IMG/VR virus record: IMGVR_UViG_3300017605_000956
Span: 1 to 64,000 of that record
Origin: a virus
Length of the DNA: 64,000 nucleotides
Direction: 5' to 3' (one strand)
A program made the translations under genes and the position numbers. The notes under the pieces are model-generated. The model searched no databases, had not been told where the DNA came from, and saw nothing but the letters and a program-made list of their open reading frames with translations. Positions 12,140 to 64,000 of the stretch are shown here, piece by piece (position 1 is the first letter of the stretch; each line of letters opens with the position of its first letter).

Positions 12140-12152
12140 AGGGAGCTCGGAC

Positions 12153-12994: not shown

Positions 12995-13312
12995 ATGACC
13001 GCGCAGATTCAAGTTCGTGAGCTCGGCCAGATCAAGGGCCTGGGCGAGATCACGTGGACCCGTCAGACCAACGAACGCCTCGTCGCCGCGGGGCTCTCGG
13101 TCGGAGTCGGCGCGCTCCTGGGCGTCGGCATCAACCTGATCCAGAAGCCCAAGGGCATGACCCGCATGGCGACCTGGCTCTCCGTCGTCGGCTCGATGAT
13201 CGCGCTGGGCTCGTCGCTCATCCCGGTCGAGGGCTCGTTCTTCACCCACATCAGCACCGTCTCGGGCGGCCTCACGGGGTATCATGCCGTGACCGCCATG
13301 ATGTCCAAGTAA
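12995..13312 (+). CDS. small membrane protein with GLGEI motif
   Basis: ELGQIKGLGEI followed by 2-3 TM. Confidence 0.7.
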   Translation: MTAQIQVRELGQIKGLGEITWTRQTNERLVAAGLSVGVGALLGVGINLIQKPKGMTRMATWLSVVGSMIALGSSLIPVEGSFFTHISTVSGGLTGYHAVTAMMSK

Positions 13313-13322
13313 GGGATCGACG

Positions 13323-13817: not shown

Positions 13818-13829
13818 TAGGGAGATGCC

Positions 13830-14351
13830 ATGCTCAAGCAGAACGAAAAAATGATGATCGGTGGCGCGGCGACGATCGCCGTGAACTCCACCATCCACTT
13901 CCTCGTCGCGAAGACGCCCTTCAAGACGCCGGAAGCTCCGAAGGTCGGGAAGAACGACTACGTGGCGCTGGGCCTCGAGCTCGGCGTCTCGGGCCTGTCG
14001 TACCTGGTCTTCGGCCCGGTACCCGCCATCGTGGGCGGCGTCGAGGCGCTGGCGCTGTTCGGCCTGCGTCTCGCCGGCGTCGGCCCGAAGGCTCCGGTCG
14101 AGGAGGAGGAGAAGCCGGCGCCGTCGTCGGCGAGCCTCCCTGCTCCCAAGACGACGGACGCGCCCGCTCCCAAGCCCGCGGCGCCGTCGCGTGAAGAGTT
14201 CCAGAACCCCGACGACTTCTCCGGCCCGGAGGACTTCGGCAACCCCGAGGACTTCGGCGGCCGCGAGGACTTCGCCAACCCCGACGTGCTCGAGGGCCGC
14301 GGCCGCAACCGTAGCCCCGAAGTCATGAACGGCGTGAGGTTCTACAGGTAA
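13830..14351 (+). CDS. membrane protein with acidic hexapeptide repeats
   Basis: hydrophobic N-half; [ED]DFxxP repeats. Confidence 0.7.
   Translation: MLKQNEKMMIGGAATIAVNSTIHFLVAKTPFKTPEAPKVGKNDYVALGLELGVSGLSYLVFGPVPAIVGGVEALALFGLRLAGVGPKAPVEEEEKPAPSSASLPAPKTTDAPAPKPAAPSREEFQNPDDFSGPEDFGNPEDFGGREDFANPDVLEGRGRNRSPEVMNGVRFYR
14193..14300 (+). repeat. six imperfect 18-bp coding tandem repeats
   Basis: EEFQNP DDFSGP EDFGNP EDFGGR EDFANP DVLEGR. Confidence 0.85.
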
Positions 14352-14355
14352 GCCG

Positions 14356-14628
14356 ATGATCATCGAAGGGCTGGGACAGATCCATCCGGGCGCTCCCCTG
14401 GGCGCGATCCGGCTGGACGGCGTGACGAAGCTGATCGTCAATCCGTGGGCCGCGATTGGCACGGATGCCCTGCTCTTCACGATGTCGGCGGCGACGTTCG
14501 TGCTGACCAAGAACCCGATCCTGAAGACACTCTCGATCCTGGGCGGGATCTGGGGCGTGACGGCCATCGCTCTTGAGACGTCGAAGCTCACCGGCGAGGC
14601 CAGCGACCCGATCTCGCGAGAGTACTGA
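14356..14628 (+). CDS. small 2-TM protein with GLGQI motif
   Basis: IIEGLGQIH..PLGAIRLDGV followed by 2 TM. Confidence 0.65.
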   Translation: MIIEGLGQIHPGAPLGAIRLDGVTKLIVNPWAAIGTDALLFTMSAATFVLTKNPILKTLSILGGIWGVTAIALETSKLTGEASDPISREY

Positions 14629-14822
14629 TGGACACCCCTCCTGCCGAGAAGATCGACTGCGAGGGGTGTTCCGGACGGGGCTTCACGATGTCCGTCGACG
14701 AGGACACCGGAACCAGGCAGCCAAAAGAACACAGCCGGTGCAACGGCGCCGGCATTCTGATCTACAGGGGCACAGGGAATGGAGGGGAGCCGGTATACAC
14801 GGCTCCGAAACTGTGGGCATGA
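14628..14822 (+). CDS. DnaJ-type zinc-finger mini-protein
   Basis: CEGCSGRG and HSRCNGAG. Confidence 0.6.
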   Translation: MDTPPAEKIDCEGCSGRGFTMSVDEDTGTRQPKEHSRCNGAGILIYRGTGNGGEPVYTAPKLWA

Positions 14823-15364
14823 ACTGGTGGGGCCTTCACGTCAAGCACACCGTCACGTACACTAAGGCGGCCAAGTCCAAGAACCGGATCGACATCCTTC
14901 GCGCGCTGATCTCGCTGCTCGACGGCGTCGGGTGGTGGGGAGGCATGGTCGCGGCGAAGGGCGGCGAGGCCAACGGGATCCTCGCCCACGGCCTGATGGC
15001 CGAGCACATCGTCGCTGCGAAGATGCTGGCCGACCAGCTCCCGGCGAACGATGAGGGCAGCGTGAAGGTGGCGCTCGAGCTGCTCTCCCGGAACGCGGAC
15101 TTCCAGGCGATGTTCTTCGGGGCGGCGTTCAACGAGTTCCCTCACGCCGAGTTTCGCAAGCTGATGACCGGGCACCTCGAGGCGCTCAACGGCTACGTCC
15201 ACGACTGGAACGCCGGGGACGAGGCCTCGTTCAACGCCCACGTCGCGGCCGCCATGAAGAACGCCGCGGACCTCGACGAGTTCACGTCCAAGAACCTCGT
15301 CGTCCACCGTCGTCCGACTCCCCAGCCGGCGCCGGAGACGGAGGACGAGCCCGTCGCGCCTTGA
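14819..15364 (+). CDS. His-containing helical-bundle protein, possibly metal-binding
   Basis: repeated W/L..H, LMAEHI, LMTGHL, NAD/NAA motifs. Confidence 0.6.
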   Translation: MNWWGLHVKHTVTYTKAAKSKNRIDILRALISLLDGVGWWGGMVAAKGGEANGILAHGLMAEHIVAAKMLADQLPANDEGSVKVALELLSRNADFQAMFFGAAFNEFPHAEFRKLMTGHLEALNGYVHDWNAGDEASFNAHVAAAMKNAADLDEFTSKNLVVHRRPTPQPAPETEDEPVAP

Positions 15365-15388
15365 CCTGCCTACGGGCAGAGCTATACT
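15361..15388 (+). promoter_or_regulatory. sigma70-type promoter
   Basis: TTGACC-N16-TATACT. Confidence 0.65.
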
Positions 15389-15408
15389 CCATCTCGAGGG
15401 ATCTGCTT

Positions 15409-15861
15409 ATGCCGGTGTCGCACAACCTCCACCTCCGGAAGAAAGACCTGCGTGCCGCCCTCCAGAAGGCAGAGGACGACATCCGCATCACCTGCGAGAC
15501 GAGGGAGATCGGATCCGGCTGCGTCCAGCAGTGCAAGGTCGGTGGGATGATCGTCATCGGCCGGATGTACGAAGAGATCAACCGCGTTCGTGCGAACGAG
15601 GGCATGGGCATGAAGAAGATCAGGCTCGCCGGCGGGAAGCTCGGCATCATCGTCTCCCCGATGGAAGACTGCCCCAAGGGCTTCGAGGAGATCGTCGTCC
15701 GCGGCGGCAAGAACCCTCGCGTCAAAATCTGCCGCCTGGACGAGAACCACCGGAAGAAGTGGGCGCCCAAGGGCAAGCCCGCCCACAAGGGCGCGCTGCG
15801 CCGGAAGACGAAGCCCCGCTACCTGCCGGGCGTCACCACCCGGGACATCCGCGAGGGATAG
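15409..15861 (+). CDS. basic Cys-rich protein
   Basis: GAGG RBS; Cys pairs; RLAGG; K/R-rich tail. Confidence 0.65.
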   Translation: MPVSHNLHLRKKDLRAALQKAEDDIRITCETREIGSGCVQQCKVGGMIVIGRMYEEINRVRANEGMGMKKIRLAGGKLGIIVSPMEDCPKGFEEIVVRGGKNPRVKICRLDENHRKKWAPKGKPAHKGALRRKTKPRYLPGVTTRDIREG

Positions 15862-16038
15862 ATGGCGAAGCCCCGACTGTCCTGCCGTGAGGTCCAGGTC
15901 TTCGTCGAGATGGGCGTCTTCAAGTCGGGCGACGTCGCCAAGCTGGCCCGACAGGGCGTGATCTCGATGAGCTGCGCCGAAGAGACTCGGCTCAAGATCG
16001 CCCGCAAGATCCAGATGAACGGTCGACGGAGGAAGTGA
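15862..16038 (+). CDS. 58-aa basic protein (not in ORF track)
   Basis: MAKPRLSC...KIQMNGRRRK; abuts genes on both sides. Confidence 0.65.
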   Translation: MAKPRLSCREVQVFVEMGVFKSGDVAKLARQGVISMSCAEETRLKIARKIQMNGRRRK

Positions 16039-16238
16039 TGGCTCGCAAGAAGGGCAAGCGCCGCCTCGCCGGCGAGATCACCGGCACCGACCTCCAGACG
16101 GCAATCCGCCTCGGCAAGAAGAACTGCGAGCGAACCTACGCCGACGACAACAAGGTCAAGATCAACGCCTGCTTCGACGGGGTGATCCAGGGAGCTCAGG
16201 CTCTCGACTGGGTCCATCGTGGAAAGGGAAGGTCGTAA
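16038..16238 (+). CDS. small basic Cys-pair protein
   Basis: MARKKGKRRLAGEI...CERTY..NACFDGV. Confidence 0.7.
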   Translation: MARKKGKRRLAGEITGTDLQTAIRLGKKNCERTYADDNKVKINACFDGVIQGAQALDWVHRGKGRS

Positions 16239-17029
16239 TGGACAGCGTCTTCAAGCTGACCGCGCTCGACAAACCCCTGCGGCCGATCATCGGGTACCCG
16301 GGCGGCAAGAACCGCCTGGCGAAGAAGATCCTCGAGCACGCGCCCAAGCACACGATCTACGTCGAGCCCTTCATGGGCTCGGCCTCCGTCTTCTTCGCGA
16401 AGCCTCCCGCGGCGAAGAACGTGCTGAACGACATCGACCCCCAGCTCGTGAAGTTCCACCGGGACTTCTCGTGCCCCCGGCTCACGTCCTGCGTCGCGCG
16501 GAATCCCGCCACGATCGCCAACCGGAAGAAGTTCACCCAGCGGTTCCGGAAGGGCTCGACCGACACGTGCGATTACTTCATGGCCCGCCGGCTGTCCTTC
16601 AACTCCAACGGCAAGGACGTCAACCTGTCCAAGCCGTCGACGGCCCACGTCGGGAAGCACACCGTGAAGCACTGCTGGGAGCTCCGCGCGAAGCTGAACA
16701 AGGCGACGATCCTGAATCAGGACTTCCGGAAGGTCGCCAAGGACAACGACAAGGCGGGCGCGTTCCAGTTCTGGGATCCGCCCTACGAGGGTCGCGCCAA
16801 GGGCCTCTACAAGTTCGAGGAGGGCACATCGCCCCAGGCGGTCTGCGACGCCGCTCGAGGCCTGAAGAAAGCGAAGGTCCTGATCACGCACTACAACACG
16901 ACCGAGGTGCGCGAGGCCTGCGCCGGCCTCTACATGAAGACGATCCCGTACCAGTACGTCTCCCGGAACCGCAACCACGGCAAGGTCCACCAGGTGAAGG
17001 AGCTGCTGGTCGCGAACTACCCCCTCTAG
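16238..17029 (+). CDS. Dam-like (D12 class) DNA adenine methyltransferase
   Basis: YPGGKNRL, YVEPFMGSASV, VLNDID, DPPY. Confidence 0.92.
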   Translation: MDSVFKLTALDKPLRPIIGYPGGKNRLAKKILEHAPKHTIYVEPFMGSASVFFAKPPAAKNVLNDIDPQLVKFHRDFSCPRLTSCVARNPATIANRKKFTQRFRKGSTDTCDYFMARRLSFNSNGKDVNLSKPSTAHVGKHTVKHCWELRAKLNKATILNQDFRKVAKDNDKAGAFQFWDPPYEGRAKGLYKFEEGTSPQAVCDAARGLKKAKVLITHYNTTEVREACAGLYMKTIPYQYVSRNRNHGKVHQVKELLVANYPL

Positions 17030-17213: not shown

Positions 17214-17233
17214 CCCCTTTGATGCCAACGAAG

Positions 17234-18595
17234 ATGCCAAGGCAACCTAACATCCTCGTCGGAGACAAGATCAGGCTTCCCGACGGCCGAAGAGTGCCCA
17301 CCTTCGAGTTCATCTCGTGGTGGCGAGGACTGAGGCGTCGCTCATCTCGCACCAACCGCAAAGGCGGCCAGGCAGCTCCCACCAACATCTTCGTCGACCT
17401 CCTCACCGCGATCACCTTCGTGCCCGTCACCTACACCAACACGGTCAACGTTTCCGGTGGAGGCGCAGCACTTCAGACCGCGATCGACGCCGCTGGCCCG
17501 AACACGCGCCTTCTGGTCGCGACCGGAAATTACGACGCGATCACCATCGTCAACTGTCTCGACCTCACGATCGAGGCCGACGACGGCGCGAGCGTCACGA
17601 TCCTCGCCAGCGGTGGCGCCGGAGGCCACTGCGTCACGATTCAGGGCGGGAACGTTGGGCTCGCCATCATCGGCATCGACTTCGTCGGTGGCGGCAACGT
17701 CTCCGGCACGCAGCAGAATAACGGCCTGATCTGCGGGTCGAACACGACGACAGGCATGGCGAGCCTCTCGCGTCTTCAGATCATCAACTGCACTTTCTAC
17801 GAGCCCGGCAATCCCGCCAACGGCACGGTCGGCATCGTGCTGGTCGGAGTCAGCGGTGTCTCCCACACTGGCGTCGAGATCAGCGGCTGCACATTCACGA
17901 ACGTCGGATGCAGCACGAGCGCCGGCCTCAGCAACCTGGGCGTCATCACGGTCGCTGGCTTCGACAACTCCGTCTTCATCCGGAACTGCGCGATCTACCG
18001 TAGAGAAGTCGACATCCCTCGCATCTCGAGCTCCATGAAGGGCATCCTCGTCAACAATCTCGGGACGACGATCGAGGACGTCCTCTGCTACGACCTGGGT
18101 TCGGCAGGCAACAACGAAAACTTCATGCACGCCGCAAGCCTCAGCGCGGTGAGCGGCGGCGTGACGACTATCCGCAATTGCGTCGCCTTCCGTGCGAAGC
18201 GCGGCTTCCGCTCGAATAACAACACTGCGACGGTGACGATCTCGAACTCGGTCTGGTACCAGGACACCACGGGAGTCTCCAGCGGGCAGACGATCTTCCT
18301 CCGCAGCGCCGGCAGCATGACCGTCCACGACTGCGTGCTGTCGGGCCTGCTCGAGGGCACGGCCTTCAGCCTGACCGGAATCACCGAGGACCACAACTGC
18401 GTCTACAAGATCACGGCGGGACCTGCGCTCGACCCCACGGACACGATCCTCGATCCCACGATCTCCGACGTCGGCCTGAACGACTACCGCGTGACCGCGG
18501 AGCCGGCTCTCTCCGGAGGAACGGCCGGTCTTCCAATGGGCGTGATTTATCAGGGACCGACGGATATCATCTGGGCCGGAATACTGACGCCGTAA
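17234..18595 (+). CDS. right-handed beta-helix (pectin-lyase-like) spike or receptor-binding protein
   Basis: LQTAIDAAGP, repeated I.NC.F / I.GC.F strands; G/S/T/N-rich. Confidence 0.8.
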   Translation: MPRQPNILVGDKIRLPDGRRVPTFEFISWWRGLRRRSSRTNRKGGQAAPTNIFVDLLTAITFVPVTYTNTVNVSGGGAALQTAIDAAGPNTRLLVATGNYDAITIVNCLDLTIEADDGASVTILASGGAGGHCVTIQGGNVGLAIIGIDFVGGGNVSGTQQNNGLICGSNTTTGMASLSRLQIINCTFYEPGNPANGTVGIVLVGVSGVSHTGVEISGCTFTNVGCSTSAGLSNLGVITVAGFDNSVFIRNCAIYRREVDIPRISSSMKGILVNNLGTTIEDVLCYDLGSAGNNENFMHAASLSAVSGGVTTIRNCVAFRAKRGFRSNNNTATVTISNSVWYQDTTGVSSGQTIFLRSAGSMTVHDCVLSGLLEGTAFSLTGITEDHNCVYKITAGPALDPTDTILDPTISDVGLNDYRVTAEPALSGGTAGLPMGVIYQGPTDIIWAGILTP

Positions 18596-22530: not shown

Positions 22531-22645
22531 CGCGTCCACTCGCTCCCCACGTTCGACCCCCACAATAGATGGGGGCGAATGGGTGGGGGGCGCGATGGGT
22601 GCGCGGGGGTTGTCCCCGCGACGTGAATGTGAGGAGGTCCCAGAT

Positions 22646-23707
22646 ATGTTGAGCGTGACAAGTCCACAGTATCAGCGGATTCTGCGTACCGCTTTGGCGG
22701 CGCGGTACAAGTCGGGCAACGGAGCCTTCAACGGCTCGATCATGTTGCTGGGCGACACGGGCATCGGGAAGACCGATTCGACGGAGCACGCCTTCGACGG
22801 CGTTCTCTGCCCCCGCTGCCAGAAGCACGACGTGATCGTCCTGCCGTTCTATCTCTCGCAGATGGCGACGGAGGACATCAAGGGCCTGTACATCTACTCC
22901 CCGCAGCACGACAAGGTGAAGCTCCACCCGAACCCCGACTTCCAGCTCGACGAAGAGTGCCCGCGCGTCTACTTCCTCGACGAGTTCACGACGGTCGAGC
23001 GTCCGATGCAGAAGTCCTCGCTCGAGTTCACCCTGAAGCATTCGATCGGCGGCACGAAGCTCCCGAAGGGGTCGATCGTGGTTCTGGGCGGCAACCGGGT
23101 CGAAGACGGCGCGGACGTCGAAGACATGGTGCGCCCCCAGCGGACGCGCATGACCTTCCTCCAGTTCGAGTTCTCGTCGGAGGCGTGGTTCGACTGGGCG
23201 CTGAAGAAGGGCATCCACCCCTACGTGATCTCCTTCCTCCACAACAAGGAGTCGATGATCTACAAGCCCGACGTCAACGCGCAGCACGGCGAGCCGCTCC
23301 CCCGCACCTGGGAGAGGACGTCGGAGGTCCTGCACACGTTCGATCAGGCCGACTGGGAACCGCTCGTGAACGGCACGATCGGGGACGGCGCGGCGACCGA
23401 GTTCATGGCGTGGACCGCGACGGCCGGAACGCTGATGCCGCTCGTCGACCGGATCATCGCTGGCGAGAACATCGCGGCGCCGGAGCTGTCCGCGCAGTTC
23501 TTCATCTCGGGCGTCCTGGTGGACCGCTTCGTGAAGAACGCGAAGCTGGCGGAGCGCCTGTGCCAGTACGCGATCTGGTCGGCTGACAAGAACCCGGAGG
23601 CCGCGGCGGTGATGGTGAAGGACTCCACTCGCGTCGCGAAAGACAAGATCACCGTGGCGCCCTCGTGGAAGAAGACCGTGGCCCGCCTGGCGGACTACGT
23701 GGTCTAG
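22646..23707 (+). CDS. MoxR-like AAA+ ATPase
   Basis: GDTGIGKT (Walker A), FLDEF (Walker B), GGNR, PRTWE. Confidence 0.88.
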   Translation: MLSVTSPQYQRILRTALAARYKSGNGAFNGSIMLLGDTGIGKTDSTEHAFDGVLCPRCQKHDVIVLPFYLSQMATEDIKGLYIYSPQHDKVKLHPNPDFQLDEECPRVYFLDEFTTVERPMQKSSLEFTLKHSIGGTKLPKGSIVVLGGNRVEDGADVEDMVRPQRTRMTFLQFEFSSEAWFDWALKKGIHPYVISFLHNKESMIYKPDVNAQHGEPLPRTWERTSEVLHTFDQADWEPLVNGTIGDGAATEFMAWTATAGTLMPLVDRIIAGENIAAPELSAQFFISGVLVDRFVKNAKLAERLCQYAIWSADKNPEAAAVMVKDSTRVAKDKITVAPSWKKTVARLADYVV

Positions 23708-23806
23708 GGACGGCGAGCGACCGGGCAGCCCCGCATCCGGGGCTGGTCGCTGGCGCGACCAGCCCCCCGTGTGTGAGCCATCCGAGTCTTGAGAAAGGAG
23801 AATGGC

Positions 23807-25018
23807 GTGGACGAGATGCAGAGAATGAAGCGAGCCCGAACGATGCTCCTTCTACACTACCCCTTCTTCGGCTACTTGGCGGCGAAGCTGAAGATCGTCG
23901 AATCGACGGCGTATCCGACGATGGCGACGGACGGGCGGCACATCTTCTTCAACCCGGACTTCACGAAGAAGCTGTCCGCGAACCAGACGCTCACGGGCAT
24001 CGCCCACGAGGTCATGCACAACGCCTGCGAGCACTTCAGCCGCGCCGGCTCGCGGGACCCCGAGAAGTGGAAGAAGGCGGCGGACTACGCGATCAACCTG
24101 ATCCTGAAGGACTCGGGCTTCGCGCCGATCGACATCCCCGGCGTCTTCTCGTGGCTGCTCGACGAACAGTGGCGCGGCATGACGGCGGAGCGGATCTGCG
24201 ACACGATGCCCAGCTCCCCGCCGTGCCCGAGCTGCGTGATCGTGAAGGTGAGCGGAGGCGGGCTGCCCGGGGCCGAGTCGAACGAGGATCCTGGGGAAGA
24301 CCCCCAGAAGCAGGACCCGACGGCCCCCGACCACAGCCAGTCGAAAGATCCCATCCCCCCGCCGGTCAACTGGAAGCGGGCGCTCGTCGAGGCGGCCCAG
24401 TTCGCCAAGATGCGCGGCAAGCTCCCCGCCGGGATGGAGGAGATGGTCGACGGCATCATCCACCCGAAGGTCAACTGGAAGCAGATCATCCGGAACTCGT
24501 TCGCCGCGGCGAAGAAGACGGACTGGACGTACCGCCGACCCAACAGGCGCTACGCCCACACGGGGATCGCGATGCCGGTGCCGTTCGGGTACCGCTCGTC
24601 GGTCGAGTGGTGGGGCGACTCCTCCGGGTCGGTCGGAGCCCAGGAATGGAAGATGGGGCTCGGGATCTGCGTGGACATCGCCAAGTCGATGCGGATTCCG
24701 ATCAACGTCGGGGTCTGCGACGCGCAGGTCCACCTGTTCGAGGAGAACGTGAAGGACAACGACATCGCGAAGAGAGTGAAGTTCCTCGGTCGCGGCGGCA
24801 CCGACTTCCGTCCGATCTTCGAGCACATCACGAAGGGCAAGCGCAAGCCCGACTGCGTGGTCGTCTGGACGGACGGCTATGGGACGTTCCCGCAGAACTG
24901 GAAGCCGAAGTACCAGGTCATCTGGGCGATGCCGGAGAGCTCGGCCACGGTCAAAGTGCCGTTCGGCCGGAAGCTCCTCATCGACATGAAGAACCTGGTT
25001 GGGGCGGTGAGCGCATGA
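23807..25018 (+). CDS. VWA-domain protein with N-terminal metallopeptidase-like domain (DUF2201-type)
   Basis: TMATDG, AHEVMH, DSSGS MIDAS, GRGGTDF, WTDG. Confidence 0.88.
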   Translation: MDEMQRMKRARTMLLLHYPFFGYLAAKLKIVESTAYPTMATDGRHIFFNPDFTKKLSANQTLTGIAHEVMHNACEHFSRAGSRDPEKWKKAADYAINLILKDSGFAPIDIPGVFSWLLDEQWRGMTAERICDTMPSSPPCPSCVIVKVSGGGLPGAESNEDPGEDPQKQDPTAPDHSQSKDPIPPPVNWKRALVEAAQFAKMRGKLPAGMEEMVDGIIHPKVNWKQIIRNSFAAAKKTDWTYRRPNRRYAHTGIAMPVPFGYRSSVEWWGDSSGSVGAQEWKMGLGICVDIAKSMRIPINVGVCDAQVHLFEENVKDNDIAKRVKFLGRGGTDFRPIFEHITKGKRKPDCVVVWTDGYGTFPQNWKPKYQVIWAMPESSATVKVPFGRKLLIDMKNLVGAVSA

Positions 25019-25728
25019 TCCCGATGCGATGCTGTATCTGTGGGGAAGCCGAACGGCTCCCCGGCACCGTCGTCTGCAAGAACTGCAAGGCGGAGATCGT
25101 GCTGACCGAGGGCCAGGCGGGCCTCAAAGCCATCGAGGCGCTCCACGAGCTGCCGTCGCATACGACGGTCGCGATCGGGTCACAGCCAGGTGGCCCGATG
25201 CTCGCGAAGGCGATCAAGTGCGAGAGCTGCGGGAAGTCGGAGGTGTACAACCCTCAGAAGCGCAAGGCCTCGTACTTCTGCGATCTCTGCGGCAAGCAGC
25301 TCTGCACCGCGTGCGCCGCCTACTGCAACCACAAGGACTGGAACTATCAGGCGAAGATCGTCTGCAAGCTCTGCCGCGCCGAGACGTCGCTGACCGGGCA
25401 GCCCGTCGAAGAAGTCGAGGGCTCGCTCCCCGGCCAGGGCGACGAGGTGAAGCGTGTGCCGAAGCCCCACTGCGGTCGGGCGACGTGCGTGGAGGACCCG
25501 GAAATGACCGCGCACCCGTGCCCGACTCCAGGCTGCGACCACAAGCCCTTTTGCGAGTGCAAGTGTCCGAAGTGCCGCGAGGCTGTTGCGTCGGGATTCG
25601 TGGAGCCCATGTTCGGCAAGATGCCGCCCGACCCGGATCCGGAGCCCCCGAAGCCGCCGCCGGCACCGGACGATGAAGACCTCGAAGACGAGATGGAAGC
25701 CCATCGTCGGGAGGCGGAGCAGGCATGA
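25015..25728 (+). CDS. multi-zinc-finger protein
   Basis: many CxxC pairs; two CKxCxAExxLT motifs. Confidence 0.7.
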   Translation: MIPMRCCICGEAERLPGTVVCKNCKAEIVLTEGQAGLKAIEALHELPSHTTVAIGSQPGGPMLAKAIKCESCGKSEVYNPQKRKASYFCDLCGKQLCTACAAYCNHKDWNYQAKIVCKLCRAETSLTGQPVEEVEGSLPGQGDEVKRVPKPHCGRATCVEDPEMTAHPCPTPGCDHKPFCECKCPKCREAVASGFVEPMFGKMPPDPDPEPPKPPPAPDDEDLEDEMEAHRREAEQA

Positions 25729-26045
25729 TCCTCAGAACGAAGTGGGCCGCCGCTTACGAGGCGGTGAAAGAGCGGATCGAGAAGACCAGACCGAAGAACG
25801 TGGTCATCTTCGAGCTTGTCTGCAAGGGGCTCTATCCGCCCGACGTGCGGATGAAGGACGACGCCGACAAATGCTCGGCATGCCGCGTGTCGTGGTACAG
25901 CTTCGAGCCCGCTTTCGGACACGCGAACGGGCTCCCGCACTTCGTCGCCTGGTGCCTTGAGCACCCGACCGAAGTGCGGGAGCGGTTCCCGGAGGCGGTC
26001 ATGGTGTTGACCGAGACGACGCTCATCAAGAAGGAGGCCGTATGA
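25725..26045 (+). CDS. hypothetical protein
   Basis: ATGA overlaps on both sides. Confidence 0.65.
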   Translation: MILRTKWAAAYEAVKERIEKTRPKNVVIFELVCKGLYPPDVRMKDDADKCSACRVSWYSFEPAFGHANGLPHFVAWCLEHPTEVRERFPEAVMVLTETTLIKKEAV

Positions 26046-26785
26046 AGACGATCGCGATGATCATGCTTCCTCTGGCTCTTCAGGGATACGAAGAGTCGTC
26101 CCAGAAGCTCGCGGACGATCTGGCGAAAGCCGATACCGCCCCGGCCAAGGTCGCTGTGGCGGACGAGTTCGTGAAGCTCGCGAAGAAGTTCCCGAAGCAG
26201 CGCCAGGAGGCGATCGACGGGGCCTCAAGCGCGTACCGCGCAGCGTGGCCGGATCTGGACCCGGTGTGGAAGATGAAGACGCGGGAGCGCCTGGCTCGGC
26301 TCTACGTCCCTCTCGCTCCGGTACCGGAGAAGAAGCTGCCTGTCGCTGGCTGGGGTGCGATCAGTGGCGCGAAGGCGGACTCGTTGCGCGTCCACTCAGG
26401 ATCCGCATCGCTCCACCTGAAGATCGCGAGGAAGGATGGTGGGCTGGCCGACATGGGCGGCACCGACTTCTTCGAGGTGAAGCCGGGCAAGGAGCTCGAG
26501 CTCTCCGCCTGGGTGCTCACCGATGGGACGGATGGGCTCGACGACAAGTTCGGGTTCGTCCTCTACGATGCTGCGGGCAAGTCGCTCGTGACGAAGGAAC
26601 TCGTCGCGCCGAAGGACATTCCGGCCTGGACGCGGCTGTCTGATCGGTTCGAGGTTCCTGCCGGCGCCGTGAAGGCGAAGATCGGCATCCTCGTGTCGTC
26701 GAAGGGCGGCGATCTCTGGTGGGACGACTTCTCCGTCAAGATCGACGGCAAAGAGCAGCTCCGGAATGGGGGCTTCGAGAAATGA
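26042..26785 (+). CDS. exported protein with carbohydrate-binding (CBM4/9-like) domain
   Basis: signal-like N-terminus; VHSGSASL, VKPGKELELSAWV, LWWDDFSV, NGGFE. Confidence 0.7.
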   Translation: MKTIAMIMLPLALQGYEESSQKLADDLAKADTAPAKVAVADEFVKLAKKFPKQRQEAIDGASSAYRAAWPDLDPVWKMKTRERLARLYVPLAPVPEKKLPVAGWGAISGAKADSLRVHSGSASLHLKIARKDGGLADMGGTDFFEVKPGKELELSAWVLTDGTDGLDDKFGFVLYDAAGKSLVTKELVAPKDIPAWTRLSDRFEVPAGAVKAKIGILVSSKGGDLWWDDFSVKIDGKEQLRNGGFEK

Positions 26786-57302: not shown

Positions 57303-57331
57303 TTGACAAACTTCTGAGGTCGCCATACACT
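57303..57331 (+). promoter_or_regulatory. sigma70-type promoter
   Basis: TTGACA-N17-TACACT. Confidence 0.8.
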
Positions 57332-57358: not shown

Positions 57359-59101
57359 ATGGCAGGCGCAAAGCCGAACGACATCGAGAAGGCCCAGATC
57401 CTCGACATGGTGAAGGGGAACTACCGCATCGAGGAGATCCAGCAAAAGTTCCCGCACGTCGATGGCCGGTCGATCTCCGGAATCCACATGAGGCACAACC
57501 GGAGAGCCCCCAGCCCGGAAACCCTGCACTCCGCGACCCTGGCGCCGCCCGGCTCGCCCGCGGCCGCCATGGCACCCCCGATGGCCCCCGCGCCCGTCGG
57601 CAACCGCACTCCCCAGGACGAGGCCACCGAGTCGACCGGTTTCACCCCCGCGGCCCAGACCGTCCACACCCCCCAGGGCTTCAAGCCCGGCTACCGCGAG
57701 TACTTCGTCGTCAAGAAGCTCGACCCGCCCGGCGACGGCGTCATGAAGACCGAGTACCCGCCCTTCGGCATCCACGAGCTGATGGACCGCTACTCGAGCG
57801 GCGACTACGAGATCCAGCACTACCGCGAGGGCCGGCTGTTCAACACCTACCGTGAGAAGATCGCGACGAAGGCCACGTCGCTGATCTCGTCCGCTCCTGG
57901 CGTGCAGCGCGAGGCGACGCGCCCGGAGAGCCCGACCGATGCGCTGGTGAAGACGATCGACATCTACCACAAGATCCACACCGAGGGTCGCAGCGAGGCC
58001 GCGGCGTCCCGCCGTGACGAGGTCATCGCGAAATCCGAGGAGACGAAGGCCAAGGCCCAGGTCGAGACCGCGGCCACCGTCGGACTGATCGAGCTCGTCA
58101 AGACGATGGGCACCCCGAAGCCCACCGGCAACGAGGGCTCCATCGACCGGCTCTTCGCGCTGATGCAGGAGGACCGGAAGAACGCCGAGTCGCGCATGAA
58201 GACCGAGATCGAGATGATGCGCGAGCGGTCGAAGCTCGACCTCGAGGCCGCGCGCGAGCAGGCGAAGCTCGAGCGCCAGAAGGCGCAGGACGAAGCCGCC
58301 GAGCGCCTCCAGCGCGAGCGCGACTTCATGGGCAAGCTCCAGGAGCTCGACAAGGACCGCCAGGCTCTCTGGAAGGAGAGCTACGACAAGATGACCGAGG
58401 AACTCCGCGGGATGCAGGAGGCCCTCAGTCGCGAGCTCGACGAAAAGAAGAAGTGGTTCGACTCCTACTTCGAGATCCAGAAGGCACACACCGACGAGCT
58501 GATCGCCATCAAGAAGTCCGCCGGGACCGGCGCCGACTCCCTCAAGATGGCCGAGATCGTGCGCGACGGCTTCGTCCAGGGGCTCGATCGCGTGGGCGCC
58601 CGCATCGACATGATGGTCGACAAGGGCGTGATCCCCGGCAGCGTGAAGAATCCGGGCAACGGCAAGAAACTGGGACACACGGACGGTGGGACCACGCCGG
58701 CGGCCGCGGGTGGAGCCGCAGCTCCGGCAGCGAAGGAGGAGAAAGCCGTGCTCACGAAGGAAGGAATCCAGAAGGCGCTCAAGGAGCCGTGGTTCCTGGA
58801 CCTGCAGGATGAGATCGTCAGGACCGTGAAGAAGCGCAAGGCGGCGACCAATCCGCGCCTCAAGCCTCACGGGACGCTGCTGGGCCAGGCGTTCATCGAC
58901 AACATGAACGAGGACGTGTCCCTGCGGAAGTATATGCACTTCCTGATCTCGCGGAACTGGCAGGAGATCCTGGCCGAGGTCGGCGAAGGCTTCAAGCCGG
59001 AGTACGCAGAGGTCTTCCGCGATCCCGAGGCCGAGGTGTGGTTCGGTGAGTTCCAGGAGTTCCTCAGCGCCGCCTGGAACGCCTCGATTGGGGTGAAATA
59101 A
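57359..59101 (+). CDS. large coiled-coil protein with N-terminal HTH-like segment
   Basis: long E/K/R heptad region; own promoter and RBS. Confidence 0.8.
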   Translation: MAGAKPNDIEKAQILDMVKGNYRIEEIQQKFPHVDGRSISGIHMRHNRRAPSPETLHSATLAPPGSPAAAMAPPMAPAPVGNRTPQDEATESTGFTPAAQTVHTPQGFKPGYREYFVVKKLDPPGDGVMKTEYPPFGIHELMDRYSSGDYEIQHYREGRLFNTYREKIATKATSLISSAPGVQREATRPESPTDALVKTIDIYHKIHTEGRSEAAASRRDEVIAKSEETKAKAQVETAATVGLIELVKTMGTPKPTGNEGSIDRLFALMQEDRKNAESRMKTEIEMMRERSKLDLEAAREQAKLERQKAQDEAAERLQRERDFMGKLQELDKDRQALWKESYDKMTEELRGMQEALSRELDEKKKWFDSYFEIQKAHTDELIAIKKSAGTGADSLKMAEIVRDGFVQGLDRVGARIDMMVDKGVIPGSVKNPGNGKKLGHTDGGTTPAAAGGAAAPAAKEEKAVLTKEGIQKALKEPWFLDLQDEIVRTVKKRKAATNPRLKPHGTLLGQAFIDNMNEDVSLRKYMHFLISRNWQEILAEVGEGFKPEYAEVFRDPEAEVWFGEFQEFLSAAWNASIGVK

Positions 59102-59134: not shown

Positions 59135-59163
59135 TTGACCTCGCCCGTTCTCTGGAATATAGT
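59135..59163 (+). promoter_or_regulatory. sigma70-type promoter
   Basis: TTGACC-N17-TATAGT. Confidence 0.75.
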
Positions 59164-59321
59164 CCGTACAGCCCGGGGTGCCCTCGACGCCCTGGGTTAC
59201 GTTTCCCCCTCTCCCCGGGGCCAGGTCGCGCAGGGCGCGTCCTCCCTTGTGACCTGGCTCCCACGAGAGAGGGCGGCGAAGCAGCTCCGCGAGGTAGAAT
59301 GGTGGAATGGAGGGGAACAAG

Positions 59322-59624
59322 ATGCCTCAGAGCTTGACGAAACTGAAATGGGCGGAGCTCAAGGAAGTCCTGCTTCACGTCCCGATCCGCGCGAGGACGG
59401 CCGTGTGGCGCGAGTCCATGGACTTCGTCGACAAGGTCCTCGCCGGCCGCAACAACCTCTCTCCCACGATCGACCTCAAGACGATGCAGTACTCGGTCGC
59501 GTGCGACATCTGCAAGGAAACGCTCCGCGTCGAGGACGACTACGTCTTCCACGCGATCACCGCGAAGTTCGTCCACTACGACTGTCACCACAGGTCCACT
59601 GGGAATATCGGGGAAACCACCTGA
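59322..59624 (+). CDS. small zinc-finger protein
   Basis: CDIC...HYDC. Confidence 0.65.
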   Translation: MPQSLTKLKWAELKEVLLHVPIRARTAVWRESMDFVDKVLAGRNNLSPTIDLKTMQYSVACDICKETLRVEDDYVFHAITAKFVHYDCHHRSTGNIGETT

Positions 59625-59637: not shown

Positions 59638-60399
59638 ATGTCGAATCCCATCTCTCGCCGCCGCCAGTCCCAGCTCGACGCGCTGAACGATGCGCCGCCC
59701 GGCCGCGGCGAGTCGATCCAGCGCCCCATGTCCGCCGGCGCCGACGGGATTCGCAAGCTCGAGGTCCCGAAGATGGTGCAGTACGTCCAGACCTTCAACT
59801 CGGATCCGAAGGTTGTCACCCTCGCGCAGCGCGTCATCCAGCTCTGCGAGGCGAAGGACAAGATGTGCGAGATGAACACCCTGTTCCAGTGGACGAAGAA
59901 CCACTTCCGCTACGTCAACGATCCGATCGACAAGGAAGCGATCAAGACCGCGCCGCGCATGATTGGCGAGATCATGACGCCGCCCGAGGTGATCGAGCAC
60001 ATCCTGGGACCCGAGCTCATCACGCAGATGAATGGCTTCGGCCTGGGTCACGGCTCGCTGCTCGAGGGCGACCCGCGCAAGCGTCTCGTCCTCTGCATGG
60101 GCTGCTTCGATCAGCGCCTCTCCGGCCCGGTCCACTCGAAGGGCTCCGGTGACTGCGACGACGGCGCGACGTTCCTGGCGACGCTGCTCGCGGCTGTCGG
60201 CATCACGCCGCGCTTCCGCTTTGGCGGCCAGGAAGACGATTCCATGTCCGACGGCTGCAATTACCACCACGTCTGGGTGCAGGGCCAGGACGACAAGGGC
60301 GACTGGCACGACATGGACGTCACCGAGAAACGCTCGAAGCTCGGCTGGTTCTACGAAGGCTTCTCCTGCACCGGTGTTGCGGCCATCTTCGCGGAGTAG
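59638..60399 (+). CDS. transglutaminase-like cysteine protease (putative maturation protease)
   Basis: FRYVNDP, GDCDD (catalytic Cys), HHVWVQ (His), WHDMDVT (Asp). Confidence 0.85.
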   Translation: MSNPISRRRQSQLDALNDAPPGRGESIQRPMSAGADGIRKLEVPKMVQYVQTFNSDPKVVTLAQRVIQLCEAKDKMCEMNTLFQWTKNHFRYVNDPIDKEAIKTAPRMIGEIMTPPEVIEHILGPELITQMNGFGLGHGSLLEGDPRKRLVLCMGCFDQRLSGPVHSKGSGDCDDGATFLATLLAAVGITPRFRFGGQEDDSMSDGCNYHHVWVQGQDDKGDWHDMDVTEKRSKLGWFYEGFSCTGVAAIFAE

Positions 60400-60664
60400 A
60401 GTGCCCGGCAGCGGGTCGGGGTTCGGTGGATCGGGACGGATACGCTGAAGAAGTCCCGCGCGGTTGAGTCATCCGCGCAGAGTCCATCGCCCGACTCGCG
60501 GGGTTTTCCCCTCACCGTGCTCCCCCTGCGACGGCCCGCAACGCGGGCCGGCGCATGAGCGGAATTCTTTCTGTACGATTTAGGCTTGACACACCGAGCC
60601 ACTGCGGTAATACTCCGTCTCGATGAGGTCGTCACACCCGAGCCGCCGAAATAAGGAGATGCCC

Positions 60665-61258
60665 ATGAGCTCGAAGTGCCCGCCGGTCACCGTCAACCTC
60701 GACGAAGTCGTCGACACCGTCAAGGCGAAGATCCTGAGCGAGCACCCCGAGCTGACCTCCAAGAAGGTCGACGGGAACGTCCACAGCGTCGGCATCCGCG
60801 GCCTCGGCGAGATCCGTCTCGTCGAGCCCACCGTCGATCCGAGCCAGTTCGTGATCGGCTTCGTGTCGATCCCGAGCGTCGTCAACATGGCGACGAAGCT
60901 GATGCAGGTCGGCGTCATCTTCCCGAAGGTCGACCTCGCGCTCTCGCGCGGCATCTTCGCGGGCGTCACGCTCGCGGGCACCCTCATCTCCGGCGGCAAG
61001 TCCTTTCTCCTCGGCGCCTTCCTCGGCCAGGTCCCCTCGACGATCGACGCGCTCGCGGACATCGCGGTCGCGGCCATCACGAAGGCCAAGGCAGGCTCGG
61101 CGGCGGTCCAGGGCATCGACCTGGGCGGCCTGGGCGCGACGCAGGAGGAGGAGCTGCTGAAGCTCCGCGCCGACCTGATGCAGCTCCAGGGCATCGGGCG
61201 CGACGGCGGCGAGCAGATGTCGGGCCACCGCGGCGGCTCGGTCGTGTTCCACCGGTAA
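60665..61258 (+). CDS. virion membrane protein with GLG motifs
   Basis: AAGGAG RBS; IRGLGEI, DLGGLGA, LQGIG; hydrophobic core. Confidence 0.7.
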   Translation: MSSKCPPVTVNLDEVVDTVKAKILSEHPELTSKKVDGNVHSVGIRGLGEIRLVEPTVDPSQFVIGFVSIPSVVNMATKLMQVGVIFPKVDLALSRGIFAGVTLAGTLISGGKSFLLGAFLGQVPSTIDALADIAVAAITKAKAGSAAVQGIDLGGLGATQEEELLKLRADLMQLQGIGRDGGEQMSGHRGGSVVFHR

Positions 61259-61360
61259 CCTAAAAAAAAGAGCCGTACCAAGGCTCTCGGGAAGTCGTGG
61301 CCTGTAGCCGCGGCGTCAAGTAGCCCGGGTTCGCTTGGGCGGAGTTGAAGGAGAAGTCTC

Positions 61361-61954
61361 ATGAACGTCGGATTGCTGCCCCTGTTCCCGCGCGGCGTCG
61401 ACTTCCGCGCCCGTCGGTTCCGGCTCCTGAAGGACCGGCACCTGTTCGACACCGAGGACATCGCCACGACGGACACGACGAAGCAGTTCTTCGTCTCGAT
61501 CTCGTCGAAGCGCAAGAGCCAGGCGATCTTCACCGGCGACTTCTCGCTGGTGAAGGAGGCGAACCTGTTCCTGGTGGTCGGCCTGCAGGCGCTGGTCCGG
61601 GACCAGACCCTGACGGTCTCCATCTGGCGCACCTTCTTCAACAAGGGTGCGTTCCAGTGGAACGTCATCGTCCCCGAGACGGTGACGGTCGACGAGGACC
61701 GCCTCTCGGCCATCGCGCCGGGACCGGACTGGTACTCGTCCAACTCCGCCGACGCGGTGACCGCGGCGGGGACGAAGTACGAGGACCGTCGCTCGTACCT
61801 CACCGGCGCGAACAAGATCGTCCCCGGCGGCCGGGCGATCGAGTTCACGGTGAACTGGCAGGAGTCGGCCGGCAACGGCCTCTCCACCACGACCAGCCTG
61901 AGCATCGTGTTCGCCGGGGGCGAGTACGAGCCCGGCCAGGTCGTCGGCAAGTAG
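61361..61954 (+). CDS. putative single-jelly-roll major capsid protein
   Basis: LFDT...QFF...K...FLVVGL and IVPG..IEFTVNW..LSIVFAG.EYEP resemble vertical-SJR capsid proteins; beta-rich. Confidence 0.6.
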   Translation: MNVGLLPLFPRGVDFRARRFRLLKDRHLFDTEDIATTDTTKQFFVSISSKRKSQAIFTGDFSLVKEANLFLVVGLQALVRDQTLTVSIWRTFFNKGAFQWNVIVPETVTVDEDRLSAIAPGPDWYSSNSADAVTAAGTKYEDRRSYLTGANKIVPGGRAIEFTVNWQESAGNGLSTTTSLSIVFAGGEYEPGQVVGK

Positions 61955-61971
61955 TCCGCTTCGGCGGGCGC

Positions 61972-62000
61972 TTGACCAGCGTCACCTTTCACGGTAGCGT
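61972..62000 (+). promoter_or_regulatory. sigma70-type promoter
   Basis: TTGACC-N17-TAGCGT. Confidence 0.55.
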
Positions 62001-62078
62001 GTAACCGGGTGGTGGCTGGGGGTCGCTGACCCCCAGCCACCCATCCTCACAAGAACGACGAGCTCGAGAGGGACCAAG

Positions 62079-62594
62079 ATGGCCGAAATCGACATCGGCA
62101 ACCTGAAGATCGTCAACGTCACCAAGGACCTTTCCGCGGCGACCGAAGACGACTTCTCCTTCCGCGTCCCCCCGGGCGGCGTCGGGCTCATGAAGGAGTC
62201 CACGTACCACCTGCTGCGTTCCGCTCCCCTCTCGGGGACCGTGGACGCCGCGACGGTGCTGACCCCCGGCGAAGGGGGCAACGCCTACACCTCCGAGGCC
62301 GTGATCGTCAAGTCCCTCGAGGTGACGAAGCAGGGCGCCAGCGAGCGCACCAACCTGCTCTCGGGCAGCCCGAACATCAAGGAGTTCGCGGGCGACGGAA
62401 AGCTCTCCAAACTCTTCACCGTGATCGAGACCCTGGAGAACAACGAGGACGTCGTCATCAAGGTCCGCAACGACGACTCCGTCGAGGTCAAGGTCTCCAT
62501 CACGCTCTGGTTCGCGATCAAGCCGCGCGAGCGGCGTATCGCCGGCCAGCCCGGAAGGGAGAAGGCCCCGATCGTCCCCGGCATCGACGAGTAG
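62079..62594 (+). CDS. putative second single-jelly-roll capsid protein
   Basis: beta-rich; NLLSG..FAGDG..LENNEDVVIKVRN..VKVSITL. Confidence 0.55.
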   Translation: MAEIDIGNLKIVNVTKDLSAATEDDFSFRVPPGGVGLMKESTYHLLRSAPLSGTVDAATVLTPGEGGNAYTSEAVIVKSLEVTKQGASERTNLLSGSPNIKEFAGDGKLSKLFTVIETLENNEDVVIKVRNDDSVEVKVSITLWFAIKPRERRIAGQPGREKAPIVPGIDE

Positions 62595-62633
62595 CGTCGC
62601 GCCCCTTGGGGCGGCGCATAACAAGGGGACGAC

Positions 62634-63194
62634 ATGGCTCGCCAGAAACTCGGTGAGGTCCGGGCAAGGATCAAGAAGCGGTACCAGGATGCCGCTGAAG
62701 AGGTCCGGCACTACTCCGTCCCCGACCTGATCCAGAACAAGCTGGAGCGGACCATCTGGGGGTTCCTCAACGAGTTCGGGATCAACTACCCCATCGACCT
62801 CGACCGTCCGCCGCCGGACGTCTACGTGCCGGCCCGGCAGGGTACCGGCTGCCTCGAGCCCCAGGGTTCGACCGACGAGAGAACGCCCCCGAGCCACACC
62901 GACGAGAAGTGCCTGACGTGGCGGGCTCGCGACGGTGGCATCCTCGTCATCGACTCCCTGGACTTCATCATGGAGGACCCGATCGCGGAGGAGTTCTTCA
63001 CGATCACGTACCAGTTCGACCAGCAGTACAACAGCGCGACCTTCCAGCGCAACAACGGCGACGTCGAGTTCGGCCACTGGAAGTTCAACCGCGTGGTGCT
63101 GGTCGATGGCGAGGTGCTCACGGTCTGCATCGCCAACTCGAACCCTTACGCGGGCGGTTGTTTCTCTCTCGAGTCCCGGAGCTGGAGCCTGTAG
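62634..63194 (+). CDS. putative jelly-roll minor capsid protein
   Basis: beta-strand pattern; LVDGEVLTVCIAN. Confidence 0.45.
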   Translation: MARQKLGEVRARIKKRYQDAAEEVRHYSVPDLIQNKLERTIWGFLNEFGINYPIDLDRPPPDVYVPARQGTGCLEPQGSTDERTPPSHTDEKCLTWRARDGGILVIDSLDFIMEDPIAEEFFTITYQFDQQYNSATFQRNNGDVEFGHWKFNRVVLVDGEVLTVCIANSNPYAGGCFSLESRSWSL

Positions 63195-63941
63195 ATGGCA
63201 TCGAAAGCCAAGTCCGGAATGTCCGCCGTCCGGATGTTCACCGAGAAGATCGTTGAACCTCCGAACACCTTCGTCGAGGGCGACACGTCGTTCTCGACGT
63301 CCGTCCGCGACGGCAAGGGTCATGCCGCGCTTCACGCCGGCGCGCTGAACGACACGACCGGAACGCTGGAGATCCTGCAGGCTTGGCGTGCGGCTGGACC
63401 GTTCGCCGTGCTCTTCTCGAAAGCGACCACGCTCGATTCCGAGAGCGGCCTCTATACCGTGGACATGACGGTTCCAGTGGTTCGCCGGTTCGTGAAGGTT
63501 CGCTTCACGCCCGCCGCGGATCCGCCCGGCCTGGGCGTGAACTTCGAGCTGGGCGCCTACTTCCTGCCGCGAGCCGACTCGACGCCCTTCGAGAGCGAGT
63601 CGGGCGGTGCGGTGGTGGTCGAGGTCGCCGGCAGCCCCGGCAGCGTGATCGACGCAGGGGCCGATACCACCGTCAACGTGGGCACGACCGTTCCCCTCCC
63701 GGCCATCCCCGCCGGCACGCGCCGGATGACGGTCCAGAACACCGGCCCAGCCGGGACCTGGATCCGCGTCCGGAAGGTGGGCGGCGCAGCCGGTTCCGGA
63801 AGACTCCTCCCCCGCCTGGGCGAGTACACCTACGGCGGCGCCGATGGCGCCATCGCGGCGCTCGAGGTGGAAGACGTTTCCCTCGCCGTGGGAGGTTCGG
63901 CCGTTGCGACGACGGTCCTCCTCGAATTCGAGGAGGACTAA
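63195..63941 (+). CDS. putative penton/spike protein (two beta-sandwich domains)
   Basis: GTLEILQ, RFVKVRFT, RRMTVQNTG. Confidence 0.5.
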   Translation: MASKAKSGMSAVRMFTEKIVEPPNTFVEGDTSFSTSVRDGKGHAALHAGALNDTTGTLEILQAWRAAGPFAVLFSKATTLDSESGLYTVDMTVPVVRRFVKVRFTPAADPPGLGVNFELGAYFLPRADSTPFESESGGAVVVEVAGSPGSVIDAGADTTVNVGTTVPLPAIPAGTRRMTVQNTGPAGTWIRVRKVGGAAGSGRLLPRLGEYTYGGADGAIAALEVEDVSLAVGGSAVATTVLLEFEED

Positions 63942-63944
63942 ACG

Positions 63945-64000
63945 ATGGGCGCTCCGACCTTCCTCGATCTCGCAGCCGCGATCGACCGAGTCCTCCACCG
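63945..64000 (+). CDS. 5' end of the next gene (truncated by the window)
   Basis: GAGGAGG RBS; MGAPTFLDLAAAIDRVLH. Confidence 0.5.
   Translation, partial: MGAPTFLDLAAAIDRVLH

Follow-up and report, generated by a model that had tools for sequence, protein, structure and literature searches.

Tailless membrane viruses of bacteria and archaea that have been cultured have genomes of approximately 10 to 44 kb in the literature surveyed, and several of them are the closest described counterparts of the locus reported here, positions 59,638 to 64,000 of the IMG/VR virus record IMGVR_UViG_3300017605_000956, where a run of genes includes two predicted single jelly-roll proteins. The window that was analyzed comprises bases 1-64000 of this 78,478-bp contig, and genes are named below by their start coordinate in it. 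The Halopanivirales (SH1, HHIV-2, HCIV-1, SNJ1, and the Thermus phages P23-77 and IN93) are tailless, have an internal membrane and a conserved packaging ATPase, and use small single jelly rolls, with genes side by side, as capsid and penton proteins; their genomes measure 16-31 kb, and those of the sphaerolipoviruses are linear with terminal proteins. Among the Varidnaviria, PRD1, PM2, and STIV have a double jelly-roll capsid protein and an A32-type ATPase. SSIP-1, which infects a bacterium and is the largest of the tailless membrane phages compared, has a circular double-stranded DNA (dsDNA) genome (43,788 bp and 57 proteins in its record) and a PRD1-type architecture with two capsid protein types (review PMC6356626). 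Finally, SPV1 of the Portogloboviridae (capsid PDB 6OJ0), a 20-kb virus of hyperthermophilic archaea (Sulfolobales), has circular dsDNA, one single jelly-roll protein, VP4, in hexamers and another, VP10, in pentamers, an internal membrane, and a nucleoprotein core; it lacks a packaging ATPase, encodes a glycosyltransferase and a methyltransferase, and has been proposed to enclose its DNA during assembly (PMC8459092).

Against this background, we think it probable, though well short of certain, that the region forms the central part of a virion-building module, within a complete 78.3-kb genome belonging to an uncultured bacterial virus of soil that is not a tailed phage. The genome map is circular, 78.3 kb long, and complete. 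The first and last 141 bp of the contig are identical (an exact overlap of window 1-141 with genome 78338-78478), leaving a unique length of 78,337 bp, and an open frame spans the contig junction and continues into a glycosyltransferase gene that ends at 734. A circular map had been suggested by an earlier interpretation made without database searches (hereafter, the sequence-only reading), and both observations bear it out. IMG/VR classes the record as a virus with direct terminal repeats; because the overlap is exactly 141 bp, which we take to be the largest k-mer that a common metagenome assembler uses by default, it most likely reflects a circular path in the assembly and not physical ends. 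Homologues of 61361 lie on contigs of 72.0, 75.2, 77.6, 78.8, 79.5, 81.8, and 83.9 kb, and we thus regard ∼78 kb as the natural size of the group. The genome has a G+C content of 61-68%, and the ∼112 genes picked out by third-position G+C (GC3) all lie on the + strand. The features of the module within the window, with lengths in amino acids (aa), are as follows:

57359-59101, + strand: conserved 580-aa protein, first gene of the module (synteny in loci L005-L012 and L019)
59307-59624, + strand: conserved 105-aa protein, syntenic in 6 loci, without a Pfam or PHROG family match
59638-60399, + strand: transglutaminase-like (papain-fold) Cys-His-Asp protein (Pfam PF01841, Transglut_core)
60623-61258, + strand: 211-aa protein with a Gly/Ala-rich hydrophobic center (hydropathy; synteny)
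61361-61954, + strand: predicted single jelly-roll protein, 197 aa (structural model)
62011-62041, + strand: GC-rich hairpin shortly 3' of the 61361 stop, read in the sequence as GGTGGCTGGGGGTC / GACCCCCAGCCACC
62079-62594, + strand: second predicted single jelly-roll protein, 171 aa (structural model)
62634-63194, + strand: acidic conserved 186-aa protein, syntenic in 9 loci
63195-63941, + strand: acidic 248-aa protein with a two-domain look (synteny in L003, L007, L008, and L019), without a family match
63945-64000 in the window, + strand: 234-aa protein ending at genome position 64649 (phrog_20556)

The seven open reading frames (ORFs) from 59638 onward are real, conserved genes, given their GC3 of 0.84-0.97, the retention of their order in 18 other loci, and rough ratios of nonsynonymous to synonymous substitution (dN/dS) of 0.22-0.46. 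The highest GC3 in the genome, 0.97, is that of 61361, and the proteins from 61361 through 63941 gave zero Pfam or PHROG matches.

AlphaFold2 models were made for 61361 and 62079 from alignments of ∼36 homologues each. Both are eight-stranded jelly rolls, i.e., a beta sandwich plus one short helix in a single barrel (pLDDT 79.7 and pTM 0.79 for 61361; pLDDT 82.7 for 62079), and the models thereby confirm two of the four consecutive genes that the sequence-only reading had called beta-rich. In exhaustive structural alignment the best neighbor of 61361 was the SPV1 coat protein (6oj0_A; Z 7.5-7.6, root-mean-square deviation 4.6-4.7 Å, 147-154 of 178 residues), followed among viral proteins by HHIV-2 VP9 (Z 6.7), the STIV A223 penton domain (6.6), and P23-77 VP17 (6.3), with HCIV-1 VP7 (6.3), PRD1 P3 (5.6-6.3), and P23-77 VP16 (5.1) lower; VP7-type capsid proteins overall scored 6.2-6.5. 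A cellular jelly roll, that of peptidylglycine monooxygenase (PHM), reached Z 6.6-6.9 over ∼112 residues, and the SPV1 score lies within 1 Z of unrelated folds. For 62079 the top matches were the C-domain of the STIV penton protein A223 (Z 8.6-8.7, 111 residues aligned) and a cellular GOLD domain (8.3-8.6), followed by a phage baseplate domain (7.9-8.1) and the HHIV-2 penton protein VP9 (6h82_b; 7.9, 108 of 135 aligned), with HCIV-1 VP4 (6.6) and SPV1 (6.1-6.5) lower; PRD1 P3 scored 5.6-6.3 against both models. Chain b of 6h82 was taken as VP9 from the chain lettering and from the disordered first 40 residues described in PMC6414509. According to the calibration of the aligner, a Z below 8 can mean merely a common arrangement. 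Because the scores are mostly below that value, we take the jelly-roll fold of the two modeled proteins as shown and their kinship to any particular capsid family as suggested only. With that reservation, the strongest candidate for a major (hexamer-forming) capsid protein is 61361, and 62079 may be a penton (vertex) protein or a second capsid protein.

Sequence comparison adds no relative of known structure. Profile searches against PDB sequences gave nothing for the 61361 family and chance-level matches only for 62079, and the two proteins have no detectable sequence or profile similarity to each other or to any solved capsid protein. Foldseek against BFVD returned generic jelly rolls only (TM-scores 0.3-0.4), and against PDB it listed SPV1, HHIV-2, and SH1 capsid chains for 61361, none under E 1e-3. 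In the ESM Atlas, module proteins fell in unnamed viral clusters only, with no structural model; PRD1 P2 families found there (score 0.76) were set aside as below the level of a usable lead. Comparison of all module proteins with one another by hhalign revealed no paralogy, every probability being <1%.

The sequence-only reading had gone further and taken 61361 and 62079 as the small and large partners in a heterodimer of vertical single jelly rolls, so that the genome would be that of an oversized virus of the P23-77/SH1 type (Singelaviria) with pseudo-hexameric capsomers. The two genes are indeed neighbors, as they are in that group, the gene signature of an internal membrane fits, and HCIV-1 VP7/VP4, P23-77 VP17/VP16, and SH1 and HHIV-2 proteins are all among the structural matches (Z 5.1-6.7, the same range that 61361 covers against the capsid proteins of these four viruses). 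However, the P23-77 proteins VP16 and VP17, at Z 5.1 and 6.3, score no better than unrelated jelly rolls, pentons are the best viral matches of 62079, and there is no sequence or profile link between 61361 and 62079 or from either to solved capsid proteins or to the Halopanivirales in general. The genome is circular and 2.5-4.5 times the size of those in that group, and the FtsK/HerA (A32-like) ATPase that is conserved beside the capsid genes there was not found in the complete genome. We consider a P23-77/SH1-type virus unlikely. The size range of 17-31 kb that had been given for known viruses with two capsid proteins was also too narrow, as it omits the 43.8-kb circular SSIP-1. Nor does the genome resemble PRD1, PM2, or STIV in its capsid genes: no module protein has the size of, or a profile match to, a double jelly-roll capsid protein, and neither such a protein nor an A32-type ATPase was found.

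Each called ORF of the genome was scanned against Pfam and PHROGs, singly or in a batch of the remaining 76. Across the whole 78.3-kb genome these scans revealed no family of terminases, portals, HK97 capsids, sheaths, tubes, or tape measures, so the absence of terminase, portal, HK97 capsid, and tail genes that had been noted for 64 kb extends to the complete genome at profile sensitivity; at that sensitivity the genome appears to be without Caudoviricetes hallmark genes. Six-frame searches of the whole contig gave 0 candidates with Terminase_6N and TerL_ATPase (PF03237, PF03354) and 0 with FtsK/SpoIIIE (PF01580) and poxvirus A32 (PF04665), which extends to the complete genome the negative answer on an A32-like packaging ATPase in the flanks. 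A six-frame scan for Walker A motifs yielded only three credible P-loops, all of which could be assigned:

36725, + strand: Sak4 (AAA_24, phrog_124)
42531, + strand: DUF3987 primase-helicase
22583, + strand: 374-aa ATPase (phrog_1297, E 1e-55; no Pfam match at E 0.01 or better)

The third was weighed as a packaging ATPase and rejected as an accessory protein, phrog_1297 being in the PHROG category 'other' rather than packaging. It pairs with a DUF2201 metallopeptidase/VWA protein (phrog_1314) at window 22583-25018; such phrog_1297/DUF2201 pairs, as we understand it, accompany an ordinary terminase in tailed phages, and 22583 is thus not counted as a packaging enzyme. The PHROGs name of phrog_1314, 'HNH endonuclease', looks like a mislabel. 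None of the proteins of at least 400 aa without an assigned function is ATPase-like.

These searches bear directly on the possibility that the genome is that of a highly divergent tailed phage whose jelly rolls are decoration, baseplate, or fiber parts. Its early genes are typical of tailed phages, as the sequence-only reading had recognized: they include Sak4 (AAA_24/phrog_124), a single-stranded DNA-binding protein (SSB; DUF669), a PD-(D/E)XK nuclease, ParB, several methylases, and the phrog_1297 ATPase with its DUF2201 partner. The domain of 63945 is found in a PHROG annotated as a baseplate protein, phage baseplate, fiber, and cement proteins are among the jelly-roll matches, and the Atlas clusters carry automatic Uroviricota labels. 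Yet the large terminase, the most readily detected of phage genes, gives no profile match, the closed genome has no unassigned P-loop in six frames and no ATPase-like protein of at least 400 aa among those of unassigned function, and ∼20 late membrane proteins would be unusual for a tailed phage. Tail-type matches are limited to partial domains, namely that of phrog_20556 in 63945 and that of phrog_346 (113 of 1013 positions) in 26042. The latter, a 'minor tail protein' match (E 5.5e-10, positions 359-471 of 1013) at 26435-26749, lies inside the early gene 26042-26785 and was rejected as a shared domain rather than a tail gene. The sole match on the portal/HK97 side, to phrog_1216 on the coiled coil of 57359, is weak (E 0.38, profile level). 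A divergent tailed phage is, in our estimate, very unlikely.

Further evidence that the region is a virion module comes from 59638, for which the sequence-only reading had proposed a protease. It matches Transglut_core (E 5.8e-7; 30.2 bits, cut-off 23), with motifs readable for Cys, His, and Asp (GDCDD, YHHVW, and WHDMD), and on this basis it may be a protease for virion maturation or a cross-linker. When all proteins of the genome and the family profiles of the module were compared with SSIP-1, the only significant link was that between 59638 and the virion structural protein gp34 (1.5e-9 with phmmer, 4e-16 with the family profile), which itself matches PF01841 and whose gene lies 5' of the other SSIP-1 structural genes. 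The jelly-roll candidates and other module proteins found no match in SSIP-1 by hhalign or hmmsearch (best 5.8% probability, to gp46). SSIP-1 differs in having gp40 (24775-25737), a structural protein with a Walker A motif (AAA_25, E 5e-11) that would fit a virion-associated packaging ATPase and has no counterpart here, and the present genome is 1.8 times its size.

The organization of the module is conserved. Its gene order is kept in 18 other loci, 17 from metagenomes and one on a contig of a metagenome-assembled genome (MAG). Across relatives it runs from the 580-aa and 105-aa proteins through the transglutaminase-like and hydrophobic proteins to 61361, 62079, 62634, and 63195, and 61361 is the most conserved protein of the module, with 42-45% identity in the most distant loci. 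The 61361 family comprises 52 clusters at 90% identity; among 1.84 billion proteins it has 23 representatives, with 23-32% identity for the distant members. Neither Pfam nor PDB sequences gave a link to it, and it has no match among GenBank phages (three queries, including distant members) or in 72,556 plasmids. Scans of IMG/VR with the family and its distant relatives also gave no matches, in a set from which near relatives may be missing. At the level of sequence the family is small and new, no description of this lineage appeared in the literature searched, and by sequence comparison the genome represents a new lineage. The sequence-only reading had proposed as much, and its proposal gains from a ∼78-kb genome that has a predicted jelly-roll module and tailed-phage-like early genes, with no Caudoviricetes hallmark gene.

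Among the relatives, the jelly-roll genes have been duplicated and fused. In L017 (54-659 and 743-1348) and L018 (3954-4559 and 4643-5248), two tandem 61361-type copies, 75% identical to each other, replace the single copy. In the divergent groundwater relative L014, a single 285-aa ORF (1658-2515, + strand) with its own ribosome-binding site consists of two fused 62079-type barrels with 38% identity between them (E 6e-31), and a second assembly has yielded the same double-barrel protein. In the PRD1-type lineage, capsid proteins are believed to derive from small barrels by duplication and fusion. The L014 fusion comes from the 62079 type and is specific to its lineage, distinct from the capsid proteins of PRD1, PM2, and STIV. 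Such a pattern would be unexpected for an enzyme or an adhesin, although it is not proof of a capsid role.

Instead of wrapping around the window ends, as had been supposed, the module runs on into 14.5 kb beyond the window and then over the contig junction. Its continuation contains the following larger features:

Genome 66251-68236 (L001:7251-9236), 3' of the jelly-roll genes: 661-aa protein, two Calx-beta domains plus beta-propeller repeats of BNR/YCF48-like type
786-17029, + strand: late region continued after the junction (Pfam, hydropathy, isoelectric point, and Cys counts)
17219-18595, + strand: 458-aa protein with a right-handed beta-helix-like repeat (by eye), without a family match

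The 661-aa protein may be a glycan-binding spike, and 17219, whose homologue in L019 is located near the virion module, is a candidate spike or depolymerase. Also beyond the window are a glycosyltransferase, several large membrane-anchored proteins, and a short tyrosine recombinase. On the other side of the junction there are a further four or five glycosyltransferases, an M48 peptidase, and a run of small membrane proteins. Judged by hydropathy, isoelectric point (pI), and Cys counts, the late third of the genome encodes ∼20 of 25 proteins with a predicted transmembrane segment and all nine of the small, basic, Cys-rich proteins of the genome. The latter (window 7641-16238; pI 9.9-11.1, 2-6 Cys each) are interspersed with the small membrane proteins and are candidates for a DNA-condensing core. 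Virions of the internal-membrane viruses PRD1, PM2, and SH1 carry many small membrane proteins (PMC6356626, PMC6414509). The late region described here would be consistent with such a virion. To our knowledge, virions of tailed phages do not contain many small membrane proteins.

The genome might also be a plasmid or an integrative element in which the products of its jelly-roll, membrane, and glycosyltransferase genes form a structure that is secreted or sits on the cell surface; it encodes ParB, a tyrosine recombinase, and five or six glycosyltransferases along with many membrane proteins, and it lacks a packaging motor. In a full Pfam scan, however, families of relaxases, of type IV secretion, and of plasmid replication initiators were all missing, the search of plasmids was negative as noted above, and the gene was present in only 1 of 401 sampled Acidobacteriota genomes. 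The genes lie on one strand, with early and late blocks laid out as in a phage, SSIP-1 has the transglutaminase-like protein as a virion protein, and the jelly-roll genes have been duplicated and fused, as have capsid genes in known viruses. We regard a non-viral mobile element as quite unlikely.

Under the preferred reading of a virion module, the remaining genes of the region can be given more or less tentative roles. The 60623 product, which the sequence-only reading had called a GLG membrane protein, has hydropathy peaks of 1.53 and 1.47 (Kyte-Doolittle), just below the transmembrane threshold of 1.6; it is kept immediately 5' of 61361 in 13 loci and is probably membrane-associated. By its match to phrog_20556 (E 2.9e-6 across residues 49-117, 69 residues), a domain also known in phage receptor-binding and baseplate proteins and occurring twice in L019, 63945 is a candidate spike or receptor-binding protein. 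In the alignment, the N-terminal segment of the 580-aa protein resembles a helix-turn-helix, a Pro-rich linker and a long coiled coil follow, and the C-terminal domain is conserved; Pfam, PHROG, and PDB profile searches returned nothing beyond coiled-coil noise, and a role as scaffold or core organizer is a guess, as is that of 63195 as a vertex or spike base. No Pfam or PHROG family, paralogue, or ESM Atlas lead was found for 62634. The hairpin at 62011-62041 has no T-run and was not scored by the terminator scan; it may attenuate transcription or stabilize the RNA.

Three + strand sites resemble sigma-70 promoters, each by consensus match only:

57303-57331, + strand: sigma-70-like promoter 5' of the module
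59135-59163, + strand: further sigma-70-like site
60586-60614, + strand: further sigma-70-like site

Three + strand sites with 10 of 12 consensus matches compare with a mean of 0.6 in shuffles. Shine-Dalgarno sequences are present, and relatives have been binned in one Thermoanaerobaculia MAG and one Vicinamibacteria MAG, both of the Acidobacteriota. Because of these promoter-like sites, ribosome-binding sites, and binned relatives (binning being weak evidence), the host is probably a bacterium. Near-identical DNA occurs in soil and rhizosphere sequencing runs of several studies, among which no RNA run is listed.

Some further genes fall under none of these subjects. A 513-aa protein (genome 74767-76308; L001:15767-17308) contains about nine near-identical acidic units GVSAYDLAGLREDDAxVRMG (19-mers), a Tyr/Arg-rich insert, and a C-terminal membrane anchor, with spurious short PHROG matches only. 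In the batch Pfam scan, one early protein each had RVT_3/RNase H, NYN, WGR, and QSregVF_b domains. A search for tRNA genes found none.

Taken together, the gene content suggests how a virion might be built. The 61361 protein would form the capsomers of the lattice and 62079 the vertices or a second lattice subunit, as their predicted folds and conservation suggest. The shell would assemble on a lipid vesicle studded with the ∼20 small late membrane proteins and would bear the downstream spike or receptor-binding proteins (63945, the Calx-beta/BNR protein, and the beta-helix-like protein), and 59638 would probably process or cross-link virion components. More speculatively, because no packaging NTPase of a known type is encoded, the nine small Arg/Lys- and Cys-rich proteins would probably condense the DNA, which would be enclosed during assembly, as in SPV1, rather than pumped into a preformed shell. 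The reported features of SPV1 would all fit the gene content found here. A bacterial lineage of family rank or well above, with an SPV1-like shell, a membrane, a protamine-condensed core, and no packaging motor at 78 kb, is a proposal that we put forward tentatively and would not expect to hold in every part. SPV1 has no sequence similarity to the module proteins, and the fold score is too weak for kinship; SPV1 also differs in its genome of 20 kb and its archaeal host, where the present genome has 78 kb and bacterial expression signals. We know of neither a transglutaminase-like protein nor a tailed-phage-like recombination module in SPV1.

Several observations weigh against our preferred reading of a virion module from a bacterial virus that is not a tailed phage. 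Structural similarity to known proteins is weak, with Z at most 7.6 for 61361 and 8.7 for 62079 and TM-scores of ∼0.4, and Foldseek against PDB found no match under E 1e-3 for either model. Cellular PHM, GOLD, and nucleoplasmin domains score equally, and the folds alone are thus no proof of a capsid role; tail-fiber, baseplate, and decoration/cement jelly rolls of tailed phages are likewise among the matches of 61361 and 62079. The fold evidence covers these two proteins of the module. No packaging ATPase was found, whereas such an enzyme is present in nearly all tailless dsDNA phages known. In the ESM Atlas clusters, the automatic Uroviricota labels stand on a minority of members that have a phylum. 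CheckV estimates the completeness of the record at only 78%, despite which the contig sizes of the relatives indicate a genome of natural length. Lastly, what has been observed of the lineage is its sequence.

The jelly-roll tailless build has so far been described only for viruses of about half of 78 kb or less, and a genome of this length would most likely be a new size for it. The small size of the known tailless viruses has fed the view that large dsDNA viruses of prokaryotes need an HK97 capsid, a portal, and a terminase. If the present interpretation is true, a recurrent soil lineage of 72-84 kb, with jelly-roll shell proteins but lacking a recognizable enzyme for packaging, shows that the jelly-roll design scales further, which raises the question of how 78 kb of DNA enters a shell without a motor. 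Relatives of this virus have been labeled automatically as tailed phages, and if those labels are wrong, this part of the soil virome is misclassified. Were the more specific proposal of an SPV1-like shell also true, it would bring the architecture of one archaeal family into the bacteria of soil. The relatives, with their duplicated single barrel and fused double barrel, would provide natural intermediates for capsid evolution and, under that more specific proposal, would show the duplication and fusion of a single barrel, the step thought to have yielded the double jelly-roll capsids.

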